The translations under genes and the position numbers were made by a program. From a bacterium (GTDB taxonomy: Bacteria; Patescibacteriota; Microgenomatia; UBA10105; UBA927), in the NCBI GenBank assembly GCA_021817785.1, contig JAKAFY010000001.1:26446-90445 (forward strand): a DNA stretch of 64,000 nt, given 5' to 3'. Shown here piece after piece: positions 5,410-36,242 of the stretch (position 1 is its first letter; each line of letters begins with the position of its first letter). Below the pieces are notes generated by a model. The model ran no database searches and was not told where the DNA came from. It saw nothing but the letters and a program-made list of their open reading frames with translations.

Positions 5410-6854
5410 GGTAATTTACGCAGTGACCGGATAAATCCCTGTATCCGCGCACGGTCAAGCACATATACCGTCACTGCATAAAGTATAACACCCGACGCCC
5501 CCGTAACACCCAACAACGGGATTGTCCGCGGCGTATGGGGAAGAACCAGCAGGTACCACAGGCCCTGTACGACGATCCCTGCTACTGCACTCCATATCTG
5601 TTCCCAAAACGAAAACGGGACGATCTTTTTTACCTCGACCAGCACCCAGATGATCGTCAGCGATATGACGCAGAGGGCTATGGCTACTCCGTTATATCCG
5701 AACAATTTTAGTCCGATCAGGGAAAATACCCAGGTAAGGAGCGTCCACAACACCATAAAAAACAACGTCGTCTTTATCTTCCCTACCGCATTTAATGCGT
5801 TGGTAAGCGGCGTCGTCAGTCCGGCCACTGCCGCCGTGACGACAAAAAAGTAAAACGAGGTCAGCGCCGGATTCCATTTTGCGTATTTGGGGATGATGTC
5901 CACCATCGGATGTACAAAAAACAGCAATCCCATGGAAATTGGGAGCATCGTAAGCGCCAGGCCGTAAATCGTTTTTTCTATCGCTTTGCGCAGGAGATTG
6001 ACGTCATGCTGCAGGCGGGCAAACGCCGGGAATGTCACCCGGATGATGCTGTCCATGATAAGCCGCAGCGGCACCTCTGCCCATTTTTTGGCCCATCCGA
6101 TGTATCCTACCTGGGCAAAAGGCAGGGCTTTCCCCAAAAATATGGTAAATAAGTCATCTTTGAGGAGAGCCAGAAAGGAATTCATCTGGAACGGCACGCC
6201 GAACCGCAACAGGCGGTGCAGCACGTCTTTTGAAAATCCGATGGATATCTTCCACGGACGGATCATATAAATAGTCGTAAGTCCTATGATCCCGCGCGCC
6301 AGCACGCCCCAGGTAAAGCTGGTAATCCCGAATCCCCGCCATGCCAGATAGACCGTTACCACATAGAACCCGAGCGTTTCCGCGATCGTCGGGATCACTA
6401 ATTTATCAAACTGCAATTCCCGCTCCAGAAGGATGGACGGAATAGTTTTCAGCGAGGAAAGGAAAAACGATACGATGAGTGCGCGAAACAGCCAGGTTCC
6501 GGCATCGTTGAGATGGTAGAAATGAGACACAAAACTGGAGCCGATGAACGAAATGATGACCAGGATAACGACCAGAATCTGCTGGATGGTAAATGTCGTC
6601 GTGACTTCGGCATCCGTCAGCGGTTCTTTCTTTTGGACCAACGCCGCTGCCAACCCGATATCAGAAAAATATCCCAAAAACGAAATGACGGCGGACACGA
6701 CATAATACACGCCGAAAATAGACGGAGTTAAAAGAAGCGTCAGCAAAAACGTCGCGGTAAAAGCGATAATCTGCAAAAGAAATGTCCGCGTCGTCAAGGC
6801 GACGATGCCCCGGATCGACCGTTTTTTCAGTGTCGCTATATCAATGTCTTGCAT
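5406..6854 (-). CDS. wzx: Wzx-type oligosaccharide flippase (MOP superfamily polysaccharide biosynthesis protein)
   Basis: 482 aa with about 12-14 predicted TM helices. N-terminus KRSIRGIVALTTRTFLLQIIAFTATFLLTLLLTPSIFGVYYVVSAVISF is typical of the Polysacc_synt/Wzx family. Confidence 0.75.
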   Translation of the reverse strand: MQDIDIATLKKRSIRGIVALTTRTFLLQIIAFTATFLLTLLLTPSIFGVYYVVSAVISFLGYFSDIGLAAALVQKKEPLTDAEVTTTFTIQQILVVILVIISFIGSSFVSHFYHLNDAGTWLFRALIVSFFLSSLKTIPSILLERELQFDKLVIPTIAETLGFYVVTVYLAWRGFGITSFTWGVLARGIIGLTTIYMIRPWKISIGFSKDVLHRLLRFGVPFQMNSFLALLKDDLFTIFLGKALPFAQVGYIGWAKKWAEVPLRLIMDSIIRVTFPAFARLQHDVNLLRKAIEKTIYGLALTMLPISMGLLFFVHPMVDIIPKYAKWNPALTSFYFFVVTAAVAGLTTPLTNALNAVGKIKTTLFFMVLWTLLTWVFSLIGLKLFGYNGVAIALCVISLTIIWVLVEVKKIVPFSFWEQIWSAVAGIVVQGLWYLLVLPHTPRTIPLLGVTGASGVILYAVTVYVLDRARIQGFIRSLRKLP

Positions 6855-26931: not shown

Positions 26932-27756
26932 TCATTCTCGTTTTATAATTTTTTTCCATACGTCTGTTTTCTGCCACGCGGTCGCAAACGAAAGCAATGC
27001 GAGTCCGCTGCCGATACACAAAAACGAAAAGACAAACGGCGATTGGCTGACCCGCGCGCCGCTTATGGTCGCCTCGTCGCTTGTCTCCGGTATCGCATCC
27101 GAGGTTTCCACACTCTCCGATGCGATTGCACTTCCCAGTATATCAGGATTTATTTGTTCCGTGGGTGACGGCGCGCCCGTCGATGACGGTGTCGCCGTGG
27201 GAGTGACGGATGGAGATGGTGTATGGGTAGCGGTGGGATTGGGCGTATTAGTAGGAGCAGTTGTAGTAGTCGGAACTGGCGTAGGCGTATGGGTAGGGCC
27301 GGTGATGGCAATAGTTACTTCCCCGCTCCACACCGAGGCGGAACTGCAGCTAGGCGTATACCGGCCTACCTTAAACAGATATTCTCCCGGGCCGTTGTAG
27401 TACGGGCTTGCCGTATCCGGCTTCACCTTCAATACCCCGCTCCAGGTCCCCTCTTTCGAAAGATCGGTTTGCAGGATTTTATAGTACTGGGTGCAGCTTC
27501 CTCCCGGCGCATTGGTCCACGTGCCGTCGTTACTCTGCGTATAGCCAAAGTAGCTTGATCCGCTGGGATAAAACGCCCCGCGCAGATAGGAGTCGGTGCT
27601 GCAGCTGGGGCAGGAAAACTGTACGGTGATTTCCGATTCCGCGTTTTCATCCAAAGTCGTAGGAACCGCGGAAAGCGAGAGCGTCTGCGTGCTCGCAGCA
27701 AGGACAAGCGGAACAAATAATTTCCCAATGACGCTGAACCATGGCAGATGGTTCAT
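26932..27756 (-). CDS. secreted surface protein with Pro/Thr-rich linker and C-terminal hydrophobic anchor
   Basis: Signal-peptide-like N-terminus (MNHLPWFSVIGKLFVPLVLAAS). Cys-containing beta domain. The linker ITGPTHTPTPVPTTTTAPTNTPNPTATHTPSPSVTPTATPSSTGAPSPT is low complexity. C-terminal FVFSFLCIGSGLALLSFATAW helix plus basic tail. Confidence 0.6.
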   Translation of the reverse strand: MNHLPWFSVIGKLFVPLVLAASTQTLSLSAVPTTLDENAESEITVQFSCPSCSTDSYLRGAFYPSGSSYFGYTQSNDGTWTNAPGGSCTQYYKILQTDLSKEGTWSGVLKVKPDTASPYYNGPGEYLFKVGRYTPSCSSASVWSGEVTIAITGPTHTPTPVPTTTTAPTNTPNPTATHTPSPSVTPTATPSSTGAPSPTEQINPDILGSAIASESVETSDAIPETSDEATISGARVSQSPFVFSFLCIGSGLALLSFATAWQKTDVWKKIIKRE

Positions 27757-27866
27757 TTGATATACCAGTGTACGGGATGTTTATGGAAAATTCTGTACGA
27801 TGGATTGCAGTACAGGTGTTGGGACGAAATCGGAACAACAATTAACGCTATCTTAAATTTTTGATT

Positions 27867-28508
27867 TTAGCCCTTAATTTGTTTCCTGAATTCATTCTTA
27901 ATATCAAGTATTAGCTTTTCATACTTATCTTTTACGGCTTTGTTTGTTTTAATAGTTGATTCTGCATCCTTTTTTGTGAATCCCAATTGCTGTGAGCTTT
28001 GAGGCGATGTGCTTCTGATATCAATAAGTTTCAGTTTTCCAAATCTAAATTGCTCAAATTGACTAAATAATTCCATTAATTTTTTGTAATGCGATTGTTC
28101 TATAAGTAGTGTATTCTCTTCAACAGCATTTTTCGTTAATCTTATCTGCTCAGAAAATGATGGGATTTTTTCAGGAGATGGGTTGTTCCAAAGCGCATCT
28201 GCCAGCTGTTTGGTTACCATTAAAATTTTCCAAAGATTATTATAGAGTTCAAATTGTTTTTCTGAGTATCTTAAAAAGAGTACTTTTGTTTTTTCCAATT
28301 CAGTTTTTGTTTTTTCTAGTTCGGTTTGATACTTATTTTTCAAATCTTCTAATCCTCGTTCATGTGAATTTTTATACTTTTCAAGTATCCCCTGAGAGAT
28401 AATTTCACCTAACCATTTTGCAATCGCAATAATTATTGCTCCAGCCCCAAAAGTGGAGATAAAAAATGCTGCCACGATATTAAATGCGCTTTGGAATGAT
28501 ACATTCAT
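27867..28508 (-). CDS. hypothetical protein, N-terminal TM plus coiled-coil (low-GC island gene A)
   Basis: ORF 27867..28541. Start at MNVSFQSAFNIVAAFFISTFGAGAIIIAIAKWLG (28508) avoids overlap with gene B. Lys/Glu-rich coiled-coil (ELEKTKTELEKTK). AT-rich codon usage unlike flanking genes. Confidence 0.5.
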   Translation of the reverse strand: MNVSFQSAFNIVAAFFISTFGAGAIIIAIAKWLGEIISQGILEKYKNSHERGLEDLKNKYQTELEKTKTELEKTKVLFLRYSEKQFELYNNLWKILMVTKQLADALWNNPSPEKIPSFSEQIRLTKNAVEENTLLIEQSHYKKLMELFSQFEQFRFGKLKLIDIRSTSPQSSQQLGFTKKDAESTIKTNKAVKDKYEKLILDIKNEFRKQIKG

Positions 28509-28510
28509 AA

Positions 28511-28867
28511 TTAATAATTTAGATTGTTTGCCCTTAACCAATCGTGTAGTTGATCGGGATCAACATTGTTAAACCCTAAATATCTGTTCTTAGTTAAATA
28601 TCCAATATGCTGCCCATTTAAATAAATTGCTGGGGGAGTACTTGTATAAGGGTTAAACGGACTTAATGAGGAATACTGACTTCCGTAGGTTCCATATTTG
28701 TTAAAAATTGATGTTGCGGAGTATTGATTCCCATAATATCCATAAGGGTTGGAAATTGATTCAGCATCAAAATTATTAAGCGAAAGTTTTCCAAGATATT
28801 GACCGTCATTAGCAAGTAAAAACGATTCATGGTTTTGAGCTTTTGCAAGGATTTGCTGAAATTCCAT
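28511..28867 (-). CDS. hypothetical protein with NPYG/Tyr-Gly-rich repeats (island gene B)
   Basis: 118 aa with SNPYGYYGNQYSATSIFNKYGTYGSQYSSLSPFNPYTSTPP repeat-like region. No family recognized. Confidence 0.45.
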   Translation of the reverse strand: MEFQQILAKAQNHESFLLANDGQYLGKLSLNNFDAESISNPYGYYGNQYSATSIFNKYGTYGSQYSSLSPFNPYTSTPPAIYLNGQHIGYLTKNRYLGFNNVDPDQLHDWLRANNLNY

Positions 28868-28885
28868 ATAATAATTTTTAAAACG

Positions 28886-29578
28886 CTAAGCCATCTCTTT
28901 ATCGTATTTTTGGGTTAATAATTCAGCTTCTATCCAGTGAGTTGTTAATTTTATCAATTCTTTTAGATTACTTATGTCTTTATCTGTCCAAGTTCGATAG
29001 TAATGAACCTCATCGTTTCCTAGCCACGCCGCTCTCTCAGTACATTTTTTAATATTTGTATCATCTATCAGAGCTAAGACAGGTGCGAGTGTCTTATATT
29101 TTTTAATTTCCTCTGCTCGTTCAGGGTATTTTACAGATAGGTAATCTTTAACTAAGTACTCCAGACTCTTCCTATAGCCTCCACCACAAACCTCATCTAA
29201 ACCCATTGATTCTGCTATATAAGCTTGATTATATATTCTTCGAAATTTAGGCGACGTCATGTTAATTTCATTAGGAAATTCAATTGGTTTAAAATACTCA
29301 GGGACTCCAACCTGGGCCAATGTAAAATAATCGCCATGACGTCCCACCTTGGAATAATATGCAATAAAATATCTCTTACATTCGTTGCGAGAACACTTAA
29401 AAACAACTTCAACTATTTCGTCATAGTCCCATAACGCACCCAAATTTTGAGAATTCTTAAATATTGGACTTGTTGGTTTTCCACACCTCCCGCAGATATC
29501 AGGAAAGTCGTTTATCGTAATTGAACCACGACTTCCTTCATTAATCTCTAACGATATCAAAGATGTATCTCTAGCCAT
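28886..29578 (-). CDS. zinc-ribbon plus DUF4145-like domain protein (island gene C)
   Basis: 230 aa. N-terminal Cys4 (CGRCGKPTSP...CSRNECKRY). C-terminal ERAAWLGNDEVHYYRTW resembles the DUF4145 R-x-GN-x-x-H core. The assignment is tentative. Confidence 0.5.
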   Translation of the reverse strand: MARDTSLISLEINEGSRGSITINDFPDICGRCGKPTSPIFKNSQNLGALWDYDEIVEVVFKCSRNECKRYFIAYYSKVGRHGDYFTLAQVGVPEYFKPIEFPNEINMTSPKFRRIYNQAYIAESMGLDEVCGGGYRKSLEYLVKDYLSVKYPERAEEIKKYKTLAPVLALIDDTNIKKCTERAAWLGNDEVHYYRTWTDKDISNLKELIKLTTHWIEAELLTQKYDKEMA

Positions 29579-29777
29579 ATAATTAGCAACATCGTACCAC
29601 TACTTAACCTAAAGTCAATTGTTTTTAAGTAATGGTTTCGCGCCGCCGCGTTAATGCGAGTCAAGGGAGCGTTCGCGCACTCGTTCAATCCTTCACATCC
29701 GTGAAAGACATCAACCCGCCACGCTGATTAGTTTTACACCTCGTCCCATAGGCTACCTCGTCCAAGTTTATTAGTTC

Positions 29778-29798
29778 GCACCCCCGGTGTGTGGGCAG
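29778..29798. repeat. GC-rich palindromic element copy 1 (variant CGCACCCCCGGTGTGTGGGCA)
   Basis: Read in the divergent C/D intergenic region. Shares the GCAC..CC..GG..GGTGTG..GGG core with copies 2-4 but has the central CCGGGGG inverted to CCCCCGG. Confidence 0.5.
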
Positions 29799-29869
29799 AT
29801 AACTCCCATAGAGGTCATATTGTTAGCAGATGAAAAGATGTAATTTAGAGCGTATAATTGCCCTTTACT

Positions 29870-30502
29870 ATGAATTACGAACGTATTTTGCCTCATACAA
29901 CCGAACGGGAGATTGTTCGTGAAGCTGCTTCCAAGAGTCCATTACATTTGGTTTTCGCGGGCGCATCAAGTACAGGAAAAACAACAATGATGGAGATATT
30001 GAGTACGCAGATTGGAGTACCAACCATACCGGAAACGGCACGCTCAATCATAAAAGAACAGGGTTGGAAACGTGAAGACTTAGACAATGCCGCCACACTG
30101 TATGATCTTCAGCAGCGGATTGTAACCAAACAGTACGAACAAGAAATTGTGCTCGCACACGTACCACATTGTTCTGATCGAAGTATCTTTGATCCCCTAG
30201 TGTACGCAGAAATGTATCTCGGGCTGGAAGCGATGGAAAAACTCAAACAGATGCCGGAATATTCCGGGATAGATACCATATATAAAAATGCGCTATTTAT
30301 CGTTATCGAACCAAACGAACGCACATTTCGTAATGATGGGGTTCGGATTTTACCGGATATTCAATTCGCACGGGAATTTAATAACCGCATTAAACGGATT
30401 TTAGAGGACTATAAATTGCCCTACATAGAAATACACTCGGCCTCTATACACGAGCGCGAGGAGGAAATCTATAGAAAGCTGGCACAAAAACTTCTTTTGT
30501 GA
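29870..30502 (+). CDS. P-loop NTPase (AAA_28/NadR-like ATPase or kinase) (island gene D)
   Basis: ORF 29858..30502 starts on TTG inside a TATAAT box; ATG at 29870 (MNYERIL) is more likely. Walker A LVFAGASSTGKTTMMEIL and a Walker B-like LFIVIEPNE. Confidence 0.6.
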   Translation: MNYERILPHTTEREIVREAASKSPLHLVFAGASSTGKTTMMEILSTQIGVPTIPETARSIIKEQGWKREDLDNAATLYDLQQRIVTKQYEQEIVLAHVPHCSDRSIFDPLVYAEMYLGLEAMEKLKQMPEYSGIDTIYKNALFIVIEPNERTFRNDGVRILPDIQFAREFNNRIKRILEDYKLPYIEIHSASIHEREEEIYRKLAQKLLL

Positions 30503-30510
30503 GCTTGTTT

Positions 30511-30532
30511 CGTACACCGGGGGTGTGGGTGA
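30511..30532. repeat. GC-rich palindromic element copy 2 (CGTACACCGGGGGTGTGGGTGA)
   Basis: Nine nt after the stop of island gene D. Stem CACACC / GGTGTG around GGG. Confidence 0.7.
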
Positions 30533-30547
30533 ATAGTTTCTTCATTT

Positions 30548-30964
30548 TTGACTTATAATAATTTCCGGTGTACTATTTGTCCGATGGCACGCGTATATCA
30601 CACCGGCGGAAAAGAAGATACTATAATCGGATTTACAGCTGTCGAGTTTAACGCTAATAATCACACCCTCCGAATAACAACTGACTCACCCAAATCCCTC
30701 GCCAACTGGATACGGAGAGACCTCCGTAGAGGTGATATATCTCTTTGGCTCGCATCCGAAGACAAAGCTGATTTAGCGTACACATCAGATATATTAAAAC
30801 GGCGGGTTATTACTCGTGATCGAGGTTCATTGGCATTTCGCCTACGGGAATCAGGGACGGCAAAAGTCACAATATACCCTTCACGAATGAGCCGGAAACA
30901 AATTAAACCCATTGAGTTACCTGTATTCGCAGAGTTATTTTTTAGACCGTCGCACGACGCCTGA
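30548..30964 (+). CDS. hypothetical protein (island gene E)
   Basis: 138 aa ORF with no recognizable motifs. Alternative start at MARVYHTGG (30584). Confidence 0.4.
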   Translation: MTYNNFRCTICPMARVYHTGGKEDTIIGFTAVEFNANNHTLRITTDSPKSLANWIRRDLRRGDISLWLASEDKADLAYTSDILKRRVITRDRGSLAFRLRESGTAKVTIYPSRMSRKQIKPIELPVFAELFFRPSHDA

Positions 30965-31016
30965 AGTTAGATACGTACAATCTTTATTACGCGTTCTCGA
31001 AAATGAACATCCACTA

Positions 31017-31424
31017 TTAGGCGGTGGTGCGTACCATTTTTTGGGGGAAATTTATCCCAAGAAAATAATCAGTAGGTTTATGTGACGCTAGGAGTGCTTT
31101 GATTTGATCCACAACCGGCAGTTTTAATGACTTAATATCAAATGGCGTTCTCATGTCTAAGTGGATGCTGGCAAACGACATCGGGTGAAGCAGATCCGCA
31201 GCATCAGCGGTTAATGTTTCTAACAGCGGGCGTTCTTGAGACTTGGCCATCAATGTAACGTTAACGTATTTATGTACTTGATACGGCTTTACTACTTTCC
31301 AGCCTTTTGAGTGCGCTACGCGATCTTCGGTGGTTCTAAACAGTAAATCTCCCTTCTGGTTCATTTCAAGAGAGGCTTCTTTAATCATGGAAGAAATTAT
31401 ACCTATTTTTGAAGAAAATGTCAA
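31017..31424 (-). CDS. hypothetical protein (island gene F)
   Basis: 135 aa ORF. Possible internal start MIKEASLEMNQ. No recognizable motifs. Confidence 0.4.
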   Translation of the reverse strand: MTFSSKIGIISSMIKEASLEMNQKGDLLFRTTEDRVAHSKGWKVVKPYQVHKYVNVTLMAKSQERPLLETLTADAADLLHPMSFASIHLDMRTPFDIKSLKLPVVDQIKALLASHKPTDYFLGINFPQKMVRTTA

Positions 31425-31442
31425 CTATAGGCTATATATTTT

Positions 31443-31497
31443 ACGCACACCGGGGGTGTGGGTGAGTAGGCATTACATCGACAGCCGGTCGACTTCG
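31443..31497. repeat. direct repeat copy 3: palindromic element ACGCACACCGGGGGTGTGGGTGA plus a duplicated gene 3' end (..ACATCGACAGCCGGTCGACTTCG)
   Basis: About 52-bp repeat nearly identical to 31813..31864. Its minus-strand reading gives ..HEVDRLSM-stop, a remnant of the C-terminal codons (..FEVDRLSI-stop) of the gene at 31840..33042. Confidence 0.75.
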
Positions 31498-31557
31498 TGA
31501 AAATTTCATTCTTACAAAAGCCCAGCGTGTGAGGTTGATCATTTCGAACAGGAACTA

Positions 31558-31770
31558 TTAATGACCTCCAAACGGCCAATGTAATCCCTTTTTTCTAGTT
31601 TTCTGTTCATTCTTCTTCCAATCTTCGCCCGTTTCACCAAATGGATGACATGGCATAGGACACACAACACTTCCACCAGGAATTTTATCCAGATTTGGTT
31701 TTTTGACCTTTAATTTAGTTCCGTCACCCCAATCTACTTCTTTTACTTTAGTTTCGTTTTTACCACCCAT
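31558..31770 (-). CDS. hypothetical small protein (island gene G)
   Basis: ORF 31558..31818. Likely start MGGKNETKVKEVDWG (31770). Lys-rich with a CPMPCHPFG motif. Flanked by the ~52-bp direct repeats. Confidence 0.35.
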   Translation of the reverse strand: MGGKNETKVKEVDWGDGTKLKVKKPNLDKIPGGSVVCPMPCHPFGETGEDWKKNEQKTRKKGLHWPFGGH

Positions 31771-31812
31771 AAGAAGAGAGATTATAACAGAATTAGTTAT
31801 TAAACAAAAATA

Positions 31813-31864
31813 ACGCACACCGGGGGCATGGGTGAAAAATTATATTGACAGCCGGTCGACTTCG
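31813..31864. repeat. direct repeat copy 4: palindromic element ACGCACACCGGGGGCATGGGTGA plus the authentic 3' end of the C39-like peptidase gene
   Basis: Overlaps the stop codon (31840) of the PcsB-like gene. Same ~52-bp unit as copy 3. Confidence 0.75.
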
Positions 31865-33042
31865 AAGACGCTTCCCAGGGAATAGCTATCCGTAAACACT
31901 TTGTCGTGTCCCCCGTCCTGATAGGGATCGTTCATGATGTACTGGCCGTTGGAGTAGGATTTTATGACGACAAAGTGCGTATCAAATGGTCCATAATTAA
32001 TTCCAACAATAACTGGACCATCTTTAACCAAATCAGGACTTAATTTATATCCGACACTAAATCTATTAATAGTTACTCCCTTTACGCTTATAAAGCCTTT
32101 AAGTAACATTGCTGTTCCAACGGAAAAATTACTTGGATCAGATACGGCGATATCTAGTGGCTTAATATCGGTGCGTCCTAAATGACTTGCTACCATGGCA
32201 ACAGATGTAACAAGACATCCGACACGAGCAATACTACATGACCCATTACAATCGTTTCTCCCGTTTATTAATACATTCCCCCACTGGCTGTCCCGCTGGT
32301 TGTAATAGCATCCCCAACTATCGCAGTGCGTTTGTCCCGACAGCAATCCGCCGCCCTGGCTGGTCGCAAAGCTTGCAAATCCTGCCAGCTGCGCCCGCGC
32401 GGCAGCCAGTAAGCTCTGGTATTTGCTCTCGTCATTTTGGGTTTGGGACAGAAGCGACTGTTTCTCGCTTTTTTGCTGGGCCAGCAAATTGGTGCGCTGC
32501 ACGAGCTGTTTATTGAGCGCTTCCTGCTCTATGCGCTTTTTCTCCCGCATGTCTTTCCGGTCGTTATAGTCGTTTTGGGTAAGCTGCAGCTGTTTATACA
32601 GCTGGGTGTCTTCTTCCTGCAGTTGCATCAGGTACTTTGCCCTGGTAATCATCTCGGTAAAGTCGGAACTAAACAGCAGCCACCCGAACTGCGACGCGGT
32701 CGACCGTTTGTACGACTGCGGTATGCGGTACAGCACCATCTGCAGCCGTTGGGTTTTCAGATCCTCCAGCTTGCCGATTTCGCCGTCCAGCTGGTTTATC
32801 TCTCCGTCCAGCGCCGTAATTTTCCGTTTGGTATCGTCTATCTGCAGACTCGTCAGCGTAATCTGGGAATTGAGAAGCGTGATTTGTTTGGACAGGGTGT
32901 CTTTCTGTGTCTGCAGTCCCGCAATGGTTTGCTCCAGTGTTGCGATCGTCGTCTGCAAATCCGTCTGGGAATCCGCAAAAACCCTCACGGACACAAGCGT
33001 GAGTATAAAGACGATGACGCCGATCTGAAGAATTTTTTTCAT
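31840..33042 (-). CDS. secreted coiled-coil protein with C-terminal C39-like (papain-fold) cysteine peptidase domain; PcsB/EnvC-like FtsEX-associated hydrolase candidate
   Basis: 400 aa with signal peptide (MKKILQIGVIVFILTLVSVRVFA), a long Q/L-rich coiled-coil (aa 25-230), and a C-terminal domain. That domain carries HCDSWGCYYNQ...CSIARVGCLVTSVAMVASHLG...GINYGPFDTHFVVIKSY...NDPY, matching the Peptidase_C39_2 Cys/His arrangement. Sits immediately downstream of ftsX. Confidence 0.7.
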   Translation of the reverse strand: MKKILQIGVIVFILTLVSVRVFADSQTDLQTTIATLEQTIAGLQTQKDTLSKQITLLNSQITLTSLQIDDTKRKITALDGEINQLDGEIGKLEDLKTQRLQMVLYRIPQSYKRSTASQFGWLLFSSDFTEMITRAKYLMQLQEEDTQLYKQLQLTQNDYNDRKDMREKKRIEQEALNKQLVQRTNLLAQQKSEKQSLLSQTQNDESKYQSLLAAARAQLAGFASFATSQGGGLLSGQTHCDSWGCYYNQRDSQWGNVLINGRNDCNGSCSIARVGCLVTSVAMVASHLGRTDIKPLDIAVSDPSNFSVGTAMLLKGFISVKGVTINRFSVGYKLSPDLVKDGPVIVGINYGPFDTHFVVIKSYSNGQYIMNDPYQDGGHDKVFTDSYSLGSVFEVDRLSI

Positions 33043-33064
33043 ACGGGCGCGTACGTAGATATGG

Positions 33065-33958
33065 TTACTTTAAGTAACGGATAAGTGCGGTCCAGCTCCC
33101 CACGGCGCCGAGAATAAATCCCAATACCACGGTGCTCACAAAAAATCCGAATGCGGACAGCAAGAACACGGGGCTTACGAGACTGGCAAACAGCAGGTGA
33201 AGCATGGGAATCATGCCCAAAAATCCGTACAACAACGGCCGCATCCACGCGATAACGCCGATCAAAATGAGAGACGCGATAGCCGCGCCCACGGCGCCAT
33301 AGGTGCCGCCCTCTACGATAAACGGCGCGCGTATGGTCCACGGCGACGCACCGACGAGTGTCAGAATTTCTATCTCATCGCGTTTGAGCGCTACCTTCAT
33401 CGCGATTACCGTCCCGATGATAAGCAGCGAATCTATGGCCAGAAGCAGTGCCAATGTGCCGCCCACCAGGCGGATAGCATTGGTCCAGTTGAGTAGCGAC
33501 TCTACCACATCGCGCTGGTAGACCACTTCATCCACTCCCTCGCTTCCCTGGATAAGCGGCGTCAACTGCGAAAGATACTGCGGGTCGGTCGCAGACACTT
33601 CGAGGGAGGCGGGCAATATGTCCGCCGTCACCATCTCGAGAAGCAGCGGATCGTTTTTGTTTTGCTGCTGGTAGATGGACAGTGCCTCGTCTTTGGAAAT
33701 AAATTTCGTGGAGGCGACTTTGCCGGTGGCTTCCAGTTTCTTTTTCAGCGCATCCGCTTCCACCTGCCCTGCTTTCGGCGTAAAAAAGACGGTAATCTGG
33801 GGCTTTCCTTCAAAAAATCCCAGGATGGAGACCGAGGCCATGCTTGCCAGGAAAAATACGCCGCCGACCAGAAACGTCAGGAACATAGTAAGCGTCGCTG
33901 CCAAGGCCTGGTTGGGAGATCTGCGGATATGGGTGCGTACTTCTCTAATGAGCGGCAT
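33065..33958 (-). CDS. ftsX: cell division ABC transporter permease FtsX
   Basis: 297 aa with N-terminal TM, a large extracytoplasmic loop and 3 C-terminal TM helices. Position after ftsE. Confidence 0.85.
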   Translation of the reverse strand: MPLIREVRTHIRRSPNQALAATLTMFLTFLVGGVFFLASMASVSILGFFEGKPQITVFFTPKAGQVEADALKKKLEATGKVASTKFISKDEALSIYQQQNKNDPLLLEMVTADILPASLEVSATDPQYLSQLTPLIQGSEGVDEVVYQRDVVESLLNWTNAIRLVGGTLALLLAIDSLLIIGTVIAMKVALKRDEIEILTLVGASPWTIRAPFIVEGGTYGAVGAAIASLILIGVIAWMRPLLYGFLGMIPMLHLLFASLVSPVFLLSAFGFFVSTVVLGFILGAVGSWTALIRYLK

Positions 33959-34676
33959 CGTGTTTCCCTCCTTTGGGTTCTTTTTTCTCGTGTTTGGTCA
34001 GATGATAATGTCCTTTTTCCTCGTCGCGGACGACATGTCCGTGTTCTATGGTGATCGTACGGCGTTTCAGCCGGTTGACGACGTCCGCATTATGGCTGGC
34101 GACGATGACGGTCGTGCCCAGGCGGTTTATTTCTTCCAGTATGTCGATGATGCCCCAGGACGTTTCCGGGTCCAGGTTGCCCGTCGGTTCGTCGGCAAGC
34201 AGCATTTTCGGACCGCCCACGATTGCGCGTGCGATACTCACCCGTTGCATCTCCCCGGCAGAAAGCTGTATGGGGAACACGTCTTTTTTATCCAAAAGGC
34301 CGACCAGTTCCAGGACGTTTTTCACGCCGTCCGGTATGTCTTTGACGGGTTTGCCCAGAATTTCCAGCACCATCGCCACATTTTCGTAGACGGTGCGGTC
34401 CATAAGCAGTTTGAAATCCTGAAATACGATACCCACTTTGCGCCGCAGCAGATGGATGTTTTTGGGCGTTAACTTTTTCAGGTCGTATTCATCGATCACG
34501 ATATTACCCGAGGTAGGCAAAAGGTCGCGGATGAGCAGACGCAGGATAGTCGTTTTGCCGGAGCCGGATGGGCCGATAAGGAACACAAATTCACCATCCG
34601 GTATTTCTACGGACAGGTCAACGATTCCCGGAATTTTCCCCGGATAAAATTTGGAGACGTCAGTAAAGCGAATCAT
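33945..34676 (-). CDS. ftsE: cell division ATP-binding protein FtsE
   Basis: GPSGSGKTT Walker A, LSAGEMQRVSIARA signature and [11 protein letters not shown] Walker B. MIRFTDVSKFYPG N-terminus typical of FtsE. Confidence 0.9.
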   Translation of the reverse strand: MIRFTDVSKFYPGKIPGIVDLSVEIPDGEFVFLIGPSGSGKTTILRLLIRDLLPTSGNIVIDEYDLKKLTPKNIHLLRRKVGIVFQDFKLLMDRTVYENVAMVLEILGKPVKDIPDGVKNVLELVGLLDKKDVFPIQLSAGEMQRVSIARAIVGGPKMLLADEPTGNLDPETSWGIIDILEEINRLGTTVIVASHNADVVNRLKRRTITIEHGHVVRDEEKGHYHLTKHEKKEPKGGKHDAAH

Positions 34677-35231: not shown

Positions 35232-36242
35232 TTACGAATATTTTTTCAAGTATGCGAGTATAAAGTCTTCGAGATTCCCGTCCAGCACGCTTTCGGTGTC
35301 GGATGTTTCGTATTCCGTACGCAGGTCTTTGACCATGTGGTACGGGTGCAGCACGTAGGAGCGGATCTGGTTACCCCAGCCCGGCGTTTTGTATACGCCG
35401 CGCAAATCTTTCTGCTGCGCGATACGCTTCTGATTTTCCATTTCCCATAGTTTGGCCCGCAGCATTTTCAGCGCGAACTCGCGGTTCTGCCCCTGGTACC
35501 GCTGCGCCTGGCTGGCGACGATGATGCCGGTAGGCTTATGCTTCAAGCGCACGGCGGTAGAAACCTTGTTGACGTTTTGGCCGCCTTTGCCGCCGCTCCG
35601 ATAAAATTCCCATTCCAGGTCTTCTTCGCGTATGTCCGATCCTGCGTCTTCTTCGATGATCGGCAGCACTTCCACCATGGCAAACGACGTCTGACGCAGT
35701 TTGTCCGCATTAAACGGAGACTGGCGCACGAGGCGGTGCACCCCGGCTTCTGCTTTGAGGAATCCGAATGCGTACCGGCCCGTCACTTCAAACGTAATGC
35801 TTTTTATGCCTGCTTCGTCTCCCGGCGTATAGTCCATTTCTTCCGCTTTCCAGCCTTTGATTTCTATATAGCGCGTGTACATGCGATAGAGCATCTGCGT
35901 CCAGTCCATGGCTTCCGTCCCACCCTGGCCGGCGTGGAGTGCGATGATGGCGTTTCCTTTGTCATACGGCCCCGAAAGATAGAGTGCAAATTCCAGCCGG
36001 GTGATTTCTTTGGCAAGTGCCGCTTCATCGCCAAGCTCGACCATGAGCTCAAACTCTTCCCCTTCGGCAAGTTCCTTTTGCAGGGAAGAAAGTTCCTGCA
36101 TCTTTTTGGCGGCGCGTTCGGGCTCTTTCCAAAAATCCTCATGCATGGTTTCGGCTTCCAGTTCGCGGATGTCGTGGCGCATGCCGTCCAGGTTCAGTTT
36201 CGCAAGCAATTCTGCTGCACGTGCTTTCAGTGCTTCATCCAT
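35232..36242 (-). CDS. prfB: peptide chain release factor 2
   Basis: SPF tripeptide (RQSPFNAD) and GGQ ([11 protein letters not shown]). Uninterrupted ORF, with no programmed +1 frameshift site (no CTTTGAC) upstream. Confidence 0.9.

Follow-up and report, generated by a model that had tools for sequence, protein, structure and literature searches.

A putative FtsEX effector with a C39_2-type cysteine peptidase head encoded directly behind ftsX in Microgenomates bacteria

Introduction

Hydrolases gated by FtsEX are the best-understood case of cytoplasmic control over a dangerous wall-cutting enzyme. EnvC of Escherichia coli, Vibrio cholerae and Pseudomonas aeruginosa is an FtsEX-bound protein in which a coiled coil is joined to a LytM/M23 domain that activates amidases, PcsB of Streptococcus pneumoniae is FtsEX-dependent and combines a coiled coil with a CHAP domain, and RipC and CwlO of Actinobacteria and Bacillus are FtsEX-activated proteins composed of a coiled coil and an NlpC/P60 endopeptidase. 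In the solved complexes, such coiled-coil partners are docked by the extracellular domain of FtsX. Three head types, namely degenerate LytM, CHAP and NlpC/P60, were distinguished in a review of FtsEX in 2024 (PMC11627006). In this work, a stretch of 64,000 nt from a Microgenomatia genome (GenBank assembly GCA_021817785.1, contig JAKAFY010000001.1, positions 26,446 to 90,445 of the forward strand; hereafter the window) was analyzed, in which the gene following ftsE and ftsX encodes a 400-aa protein, referred to as the effector, that carries a papain-fold cysteine peptidase domain of the C39_2 type on an EnvC-like coiled-coil stalk.

What was observed for this locus and its relatives comprises the order of the genes, the architecture of the domains, the homology of the stalk, the fold, the conserved catalytic residues and an exchange of heads. 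On this basis, the 400-aa protein is likely to act outside the cytoplasm as the effector of the FtsEX division complex of this Gottesmanbacteria-like bacterium, with a head that most likely cuts septal peptidoglycan. The original prediction, which was made from the letters of the window, had placed the locus within the FtsEX-effector paradigm with an unusual hydrolase module, and this placement was supported by the homology of the stalk to EnvC and PcsB, by the linkage to ftsX across genomes and by the swap of heads in the same gene slot.

Results

One genome per species was scanned for relatives of the effector, which were found in 316 genomes, and the best 80 loci (given below as L numbers) were compared; 77 of them had enough upstream DNA to be informative. 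The linkage of ftsEX and peptidase gene that had been noticed in the window recurred in these genomes: ftsX lay directly upstream of the effector gene on the same strand in 73 of the 77 loci, and ftsE was also there in 70. The adjacency was kept down to 38% protein identity, which indicated that it is under selection. The junction also tolerates insertions, since two of the 77 loci contained a gene between ftsX and the effector gene, encoding a PIN-domain protein in L080 (4573-4950) and a PMT-like, glycosyltransferase-type membrane protein in L061 (3353-4894). The titles of the informative records were almost all of Microgenomates-type bacteria of the candidate phyla radiation (CPR), including Gottesman-, Levy-, Roizman-, Woese- and Shapirobacteria, and a few named other phyla. 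Many records with the CPR operon (L002, L006, L011 and others) were titled "uncultured Gammaproteobacteria bacterium", Acidiferrales or Methylomirabilota, and these titles look like placeholder or mis-binned labels. The effector family comprised more than 1,250 sequences and occurred in the 316 species genomes, and its names in databases were automatic ones ("C39 family peptidase", "CwlO-like" at JGI, or "hypothetical").

The N-terminus of the effector, MKKILQIGVIVFILTLVSVRVFA/DS, looked by eye like a Sec signal peptide without a lipobox, in line with the signal peptide that had been predicted, and hydrophobic N-termini ending in A-Q/D were conserved throughout the family. The AlphaFold2 model of the effector, built on an alignment of 26 sequences, contained two helices (residues 26-114 and 128-228) separated by a short tip, then a low-confidence linker (218-231) and a compact domain with a predicted local distance difference test score (pLDDT) of about 90. 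Helix 1 displayed a clean heptad with Ile at position a and Leu at position d, and its hydrophobicity power at a period of 3.5 was reached by 0.55% of shuffles. When the family profile was compared with all PDB sequences, the stalk matched EnvC of E. coli (8hd0_E, E=4e-11; 6tpi_A, E=2e-8), EnvC of V. cholerae (E=7e-7) and PcsB (4cgk, E=2e-5), and these matches spanned the whole stalk and ranked ahead of generic coiled coils. The top three Foldseek matches of the full model were 8tzl_E (a chain of V. cholerae FtsE/FtsX/EnvC), 6tpi_A (EnvC with the FtsX periplasmic domain) and PcsB 4cgk, so that EnvC was the best match of the stalk both by sequence profile and by fold. The helices, these matches and the heptad of helix 1 agreed with the coiled coil of about 200 residues in the original prediction. 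Among the NCBIfam models, EnvC (NF008644; E=1e-7, 31.1 bits against a cut-off of 270) and PcsB (NF046104; E=1e-5, 24.9 bits against a cut-off of 450) matched the stalk only, and the effector lay below the equivalog cut-offs of both EnvC proper and PcsB proper. The Pfam family CC_PcsB gave a weak match to the window effector (E=0.012), and in relatives the match exceeded the cut-off.

Both the tip and the base of the stalk were conserved. In an alignment of 111 full-length homologs spanning 44-80% identity, the mean column identity of residues 191-240, which form the end of helix 2 and the linker, was 0.65-0.80, compared with 0.4-0.6 for the rest of the stalk. Because such conservation is unexpected for a passive tether, this region was taken as a candidate regulatory or autoinhibitory element.

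For the C-terminal domain, Peptidase_C39_2 (PF13529) was matched at 29.9 bits against a gathering cut-off of 24 over residues 246-374 (profile positions 5-143 of 143), and the same family was present in the precomputed annotation of most effector homologs. Neither CHAP (PF05257) nor NlpC/P60 (PF00877) was among the Pfam matches of the effector at E<=0.1. The C39 bacteriocin-processing peptidase (PF03412) reached 14 bits against a cut-off of 22, and the head is C-terminal to the coiled coil without a transporter fusion. The 111 homologs retained Gln249, Cys276, His356 and Asp372, the proposed catalytic residues, each at a conservation of at least 98%, and the same level was found for the WGCYYNQRD motif and for Cys240 and Cys245, the invariant extra cysteines of the head. 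In the motif VGCLVTSVAMVASHLG, which contains Cys276, the residues Gly275, Cys276, Leu277, Thr279 and Ser280 were invariant in the 26 sequences and at least 98% conserved in the 111. Both the C39_2-type head and the position of its Cys had been predicted correctly.

The head might instead be an inactive regulatory module that activates a separate hydrolase, as the degenerate LytM domain of EnvC does (PMC11627006). Degenerate activators characteristically lose their catalytic residues, whereas all four residues persisted here over the full range of identities, and this reading was rejected as highly improbable. With its catalytic residues intact, the effector probably cuts directly, unlike the amidase-activating EnvC.

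Modelled alone, the C-terminal domain reached a pLDDT of 93.2 and a predicted template modelling score (pTM) of 0.90, and the model presented a papain-like fold; the Cys, His and Asp and the upstream Gln that go with this fold in clan CA are present in the sequence. In the fold comparison, the highest score was obtained for the pseudomurein endoisopeptidase PeiR (8z4h, 12.2), followed by the C39 peptidase domain of ComA (11.0), PCAT1 (10.7) and the C39-like protein 3erv of Bacillus anthracis (10.5), while the NlpC/P60 enzyme MepS (6.4), the putative phage lysin Ly7917 (6.4) and Gsp amidase (6.2) scored lower; the last two we take to be of the CHAP type. Sequence and model together place the head among the papain-fold peptidases, in the C39/C71 branch and apart from the heads known from PcsB, CwlO and RipC. 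Among predicted viral structures, three matches were significant (a tail tape-measure protein, a cyanophage "lysozyme" and a "peptidase"), and a phage endolysin came next with E=0.013. The sequences retrieved in a word-index search with the profile of the head were for the most part fragments and short CPR proteins of a single domain, and none had an informative name.

The same gene slot was found to accommodate another head. In L065 (Woesebacteria), ftsX is followed by a protein with CC_PcsB and Peptidase_M23 domains and then by a protein with a coiled coil and a C39_2 domain; the two stalks share 74% of their residues over 198 aa, with the likeness stopping at the junction of stalk and head. 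L052 and L066 contain the same two genes in reverse order, which makes three genomes in all with both types in tandem. A search with the M23 paralog yielded about 1,186 relatives, many of them from Gottesmanbacteria, and two M23-type loci of other Gottesmanbacteria chosen from these relatives (L081 and L083) were fully syntenic with the window, differing only in the head after ftsX. Their gene order was ruvBAC or other flanks, prfB, a small membrane protein, ftsE, ftsX, the coiled-coil and M23 protein, a 260-288-aa protein, (VanZ) and TsaE. Residues 1-218 of the window effector were 48% and 52% identical to the two M23-type proteins (E=2e-62 and 5e-57), and the identity ended at residue 218. 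Such identity in the same slot indicated homology of the stalks, not a shared composition. These loci show that M23 and C39_2 heads were exchanged on one scaffold in one operon slot. Since the stalk is homologous to that of EnvC-like M23 proteins in this position, the C39_2 domain is a second kind of catalytic head on a common scaffold that would dock on FtsX. No M23-type paralog was found inside the 64-kb window.

In the coiled-coil and M23 paralogs (L052, 6258-7397; L065, 3570-4661; L066, 6065-7330), the M23 motifs occurred in reversed order, with GxxGxSTGPHLHFE first, then HTGxD and a final LYxH, and M23 was reported by Pfam in two separate stretches. In lysostaphin and LytM, the HxxxD motif comes first. 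The reversed order suggests that the M23 domain has been circularly permuted.

Several observations weigh against the effector being a wall-cutting partner of FtsEX. Helix 2 gave no significant 3.5-residue heptad signal in the periodicity test and was less regular, and the E-values of coiled coils against the PDB can be inflated by composition. An origin of the EnvC and PcsB matches in composition was ruled out by the E-value of 2e-62 to the same-slot M23-type proteins, which came from compositionally adjusted BLASTP. The head-only profile search against the PDB gave marginal matches to ComA only, at a non-significant E=1; His356 and Asp372 fell under a conserved His and Asp of ComA, which we take to be its catalytic pair, and Cys276 was left uncovered. 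As the alignment begins after this residue, the assignment of the catalytic Cys rests on its conservation and on the Pfam match.

In two of the 77 loci (L043 and L059), the effector gene is encoded away from ftsEX, which also counts against a fixed partnership. These loci would fit a secreted coiled-coil peptidase whose gene is only adjacent to ftsEX and which acts independently of it, for example by attacking the wall of a host or competitor; so would the existence of short stand-alone C39_2 relatives in CPR, the recombination hot-spot at the end of the effector gene and the fact that CPR bacteria are widely thought to be episymbionts. This independent role was judged very unlikely, because the adjacency holds in 73 of 77 genomes down to 38% identity, and because the stalk is specifically EnvC/PcsB-like, is common to M23 proteins in the identical slot and would be without obvious use in a free toxin.

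Last among the contrary points, ComA and PCAT1, the best-studied relatives of the fold, cut the leader peptides of proteins and not peptidoglycan. True C39 domains process proteins, and likewise the effector could dock on FtsEX with a head that, as a protease, processes or activates some other protein of the envelope, such as a hydrolase, a pilin, an S-layer protein or a secreted pro-peptide. The nearest structural relatives of the head include wall-cutting enzymes, and the structure nearest to this conserved and apparently active head was that of a cell-wall endoisopeptidase. A protein-processing head was considered unlikely, and cleavage of septal peptidoglycan was retained as the probable function of the effector.

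The five genes of the cluster, prfB, the gene of a 175-aa membrane protein, ftsE, ftsX and the effector gene, are open reading frames (ORFs) arranged head to tail on the minus strand with gaps of at most 24 nt (Table 1). The predicted series of ftsE, ftsX and a coiled-coil cysteine peptidase gene held in all its coordinates, and the FtsE, FtsX and C39_2 domains were matched. The translation of FtsE contained an intact Walker A (GPSGSGKT), signature (LSAGEMQR) and Walker B (LLADEPT). FtsX_ECD was complete in the window FtsX (profile positions 2-96 of 96, E=7e-19), with about 160 bits against cut-offs of 225-255 the protein stayed under the thresholds of all three NCBIfam FtsX models, and its closest solved relative was FtsX of Mycobacterium tuberculosis in the FtsEX-RipC complex (8idb_C, E=2e-18). 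The gene prfB was located upstream of the ftsEX cluster in 51 of the 80 related loci and was missing mostly where the upstream DNA was short. The order prfB-ftsE-ftsX presumably matches that of the pneumococcal operon. The hairpin after the effector stop codon is probably the end of the operon.

Table 1. Coordinates of the features of the ftsEX cluster and its surroundings in the window
Feature	Coordinates	Strand	Remarks
274-aa protein gene	26932..27756	-	next gene after effector gene and insert
Low-GC (guanine plus cytosine) insert, ~4.1 kb	27757..31810		GC 0.32-0.43 vs ~0.52; between effector gene and 274-aa gene
Terminator-like hairpin	31811..31839	-	directly 3' of effector stop; scan match 31830-31816(-); repeat family D1
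Effector ORF, 400 aa	31840..33042	-	starts 22 nt past ftsX
Effector head, aa 232-400	31843..32349	-	C39_2-type papain-fold cysteine peptidase domain; proposed catalytic Gln249, Cys276, His356, Asp372
Effector coiled-coil stalk, aa 26-228	32358..32967	-	two long antiparallel helices; tip ~aa 115-127
Effector signal peptide, ~aa 1-23	32964..33042	-	read from sequence; probable cleavage after VFA
ftsX	33065..33958	-	PF18075 FtsX_ECD and PF02687 permease domain; 14-nt overlap with ftsE
ftsE, ATP-binding cassette (ABC) ATPase	33945..34676	-	TIGR02673, 269 bits vs cut-off 264.85
Bitopic membrane protein, 175 aa	34701..35228	-	directly upstream of ftsE
prfB, peptide chain release factor 2	35232..36242	-	first gene of cluster; PCRF and RF-1 domains

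A bitopic membrane protein of 147-175 aa was encoded directly upstream of ftsE in 67 of the 80 loci, and it was found in both C39-type and M23-type loci (e.g. L081, 3937-4380; L083, 3867-4388). Besides a variable cytoplasmic tail and a single transmembrane (TM) helix, it has an extracellular C-terminal domain that spans about 95 aa, is conserved and contains the motif GWLMDVG. No significant sequence match was obtained in Pfam or the PDB, and its cluster representatives numbered only 356 out of 1.84 billion proteins. This protein may be an unrecognised extra component of the CPR FtsEX module. Downstream, the gene of the 274-aa protein was the conserved next gene after the effector gene in L001, L052, L065, L081 and L083, with VanZ and TsaE after it; the 274-aa protein combines a signal-like N-terminus with a domain that contains Cys, a linker rich in Pro and Thr, and a TM anchor at the C-terminus.

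The 3' end of the effector gene had also been predicted to be the insertion site of an island, and this was confirmed by a low-GC insert that abuts the gene, by its absence from syntenic loci and by duplicates of the gene end inside it. Against a GC content of about 0.52, the stretch from about 27.8 to 31.8 kb had only 0.32-0.43. In the syntenic loci, the effector gene is followed by the 274-aa homolog, after a gap of about 170 nt in L003 and straight on in L081 and L083, so that the stretch of about 4.1 kb in the window is an insert. Assembly chimerism was rejected as its origin, since five independent assemblies carried the insert. It contained about seven small ORFs, and those at 27867-31424 encode proteins of 224 aa (TM/coiled coil), 118 aa, 230 aa (rich in Cys), 214 aa (an AAA_28 P-loop ATPase), 138 aa and 135 aa. 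No integrase, recombinase, transposase or significant defence-family match was found among the ORFs of the island, where the AAA_28 ATPase and a weak match to mad8 (E=0.008) were the only matches.

The terminator hairpin (CGCACACCGGGGGTGTGGGTGA) at 31811-31864 was repeated in three further copies within the insert (29774-29802, 30508-30536 and 31441-31497; repeats D1 and D2), which sit between ORFs in its right-hand half. The copy at 31441-31497 duplicates the last eight codons, the stop codon and the hairpin of the effector gene. The repeats look like the traces of serial, cassette-like insertions at the 3' end of the effector gene. In L001, from a related member of Gottesmanbacteria, an 88-nt direct duplicate of the effector 3' end was found (6108-6195 and 6248-6335, 83% identical), whose copies encode an identical C-terminus of 28 aa with only synonymous differences, and an ORF of 196 aa comes next. 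A duplicate of this kind is the signature of elements that integrate into the 3' end of a gene and restore it, and its occurrence suggests that other lineages use the same integration hot-spot.

Discussion

Among the described partners of FtsEX, EnvC resembles the effector most closely, as in both of them a signal peptide precedes a hairpin of antiparallel coiled coil, about 200 aa long, and a globular head lies at the C-terminus. The difference lies in the head, which is a papain-fold cysteine peptidase in the effector and not LytM. PcsB shares with the effector a coiled-coil stalk and a clan-CA cysteine hydrolase as head, and RipC and CwlO follow the same logic of architecture and the same presumed mechanotransmission. 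Compared with C39_2 proteins, C39 bacteriocin peptidases and the C71 enzyme PeiR, the effector differs in that its head sits on an EnvC-type stalk, within the product of a gene of the ftsEX operon. True C39 domains are fused to an ABC exporter, and the effector head is not. Members of C39_2 have been described as single-domain peptidases near transporters, with FtsX unmentioned (PMC10318531). In full-text searches of the literature on FtsEX or FtsX combined with C39, Patescibacteria or CPR, no description of the effector architecture was found. The type of head and its natural swap are new; modular FtsEX effectors were already known, and the concept would therefore be expected by specialists.

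A working mechanism can be modelled on the solved EnvC, PcsB and RipC systems (PMC11627006). The effector would be exported by Sec and its signal peptide removed, after which the tip of the antiparallel coiled coil would dock into the groove of two FtsX extracellular domains. As FtsE binds and hydrolyses ATP, the change would be passed on through FtsX and the stalk, freeing or positioning the C-terminal head; the ATP cycle may compress or shift the stalk, so that the head leaves an autoinhibited position. The catalytically competent C39_2-type head (Gln249, Cys276, His356, Asp372) would then most likely cut peptide stems or cross-links of the septal peptidoglycan, and the daughter cells would separate. 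In this mechanism, the binding to FtsX, the activation driven by ATP, the autoinhibition and the choice of peptidoglycan as substrate are what we infer by analogy with those systems.

M23 and C39_2 heads were found on stalks of 48-74% identity in the same slot, and stalk and head can therefore be regarded as separable modules with a junction near residue 218, which provides a design rule for chimeric effectors. A wider and tentative proposal, which we hold to be possible and somewhat doubtful, is that the Microgenomates stalk is a chassis for interchangeable heads (M23, C39_2, sometimes both), that C39_2 forms a fourth, undescribed class of FtsEX-gated hydrolases, and that the 175-aa protein is a CPR-specific subunit or regulator. 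If this is true, which head a genome carries could follow the chemistry of its peptidoglycan or its conflict with phages or hosts. The locus adds a C39_2 cysteine peptidase to the head types of FtsEX, places a large unstudied family of proteins in a functional context, and adds a piece to the division of ultrasmall CPR bacteria.

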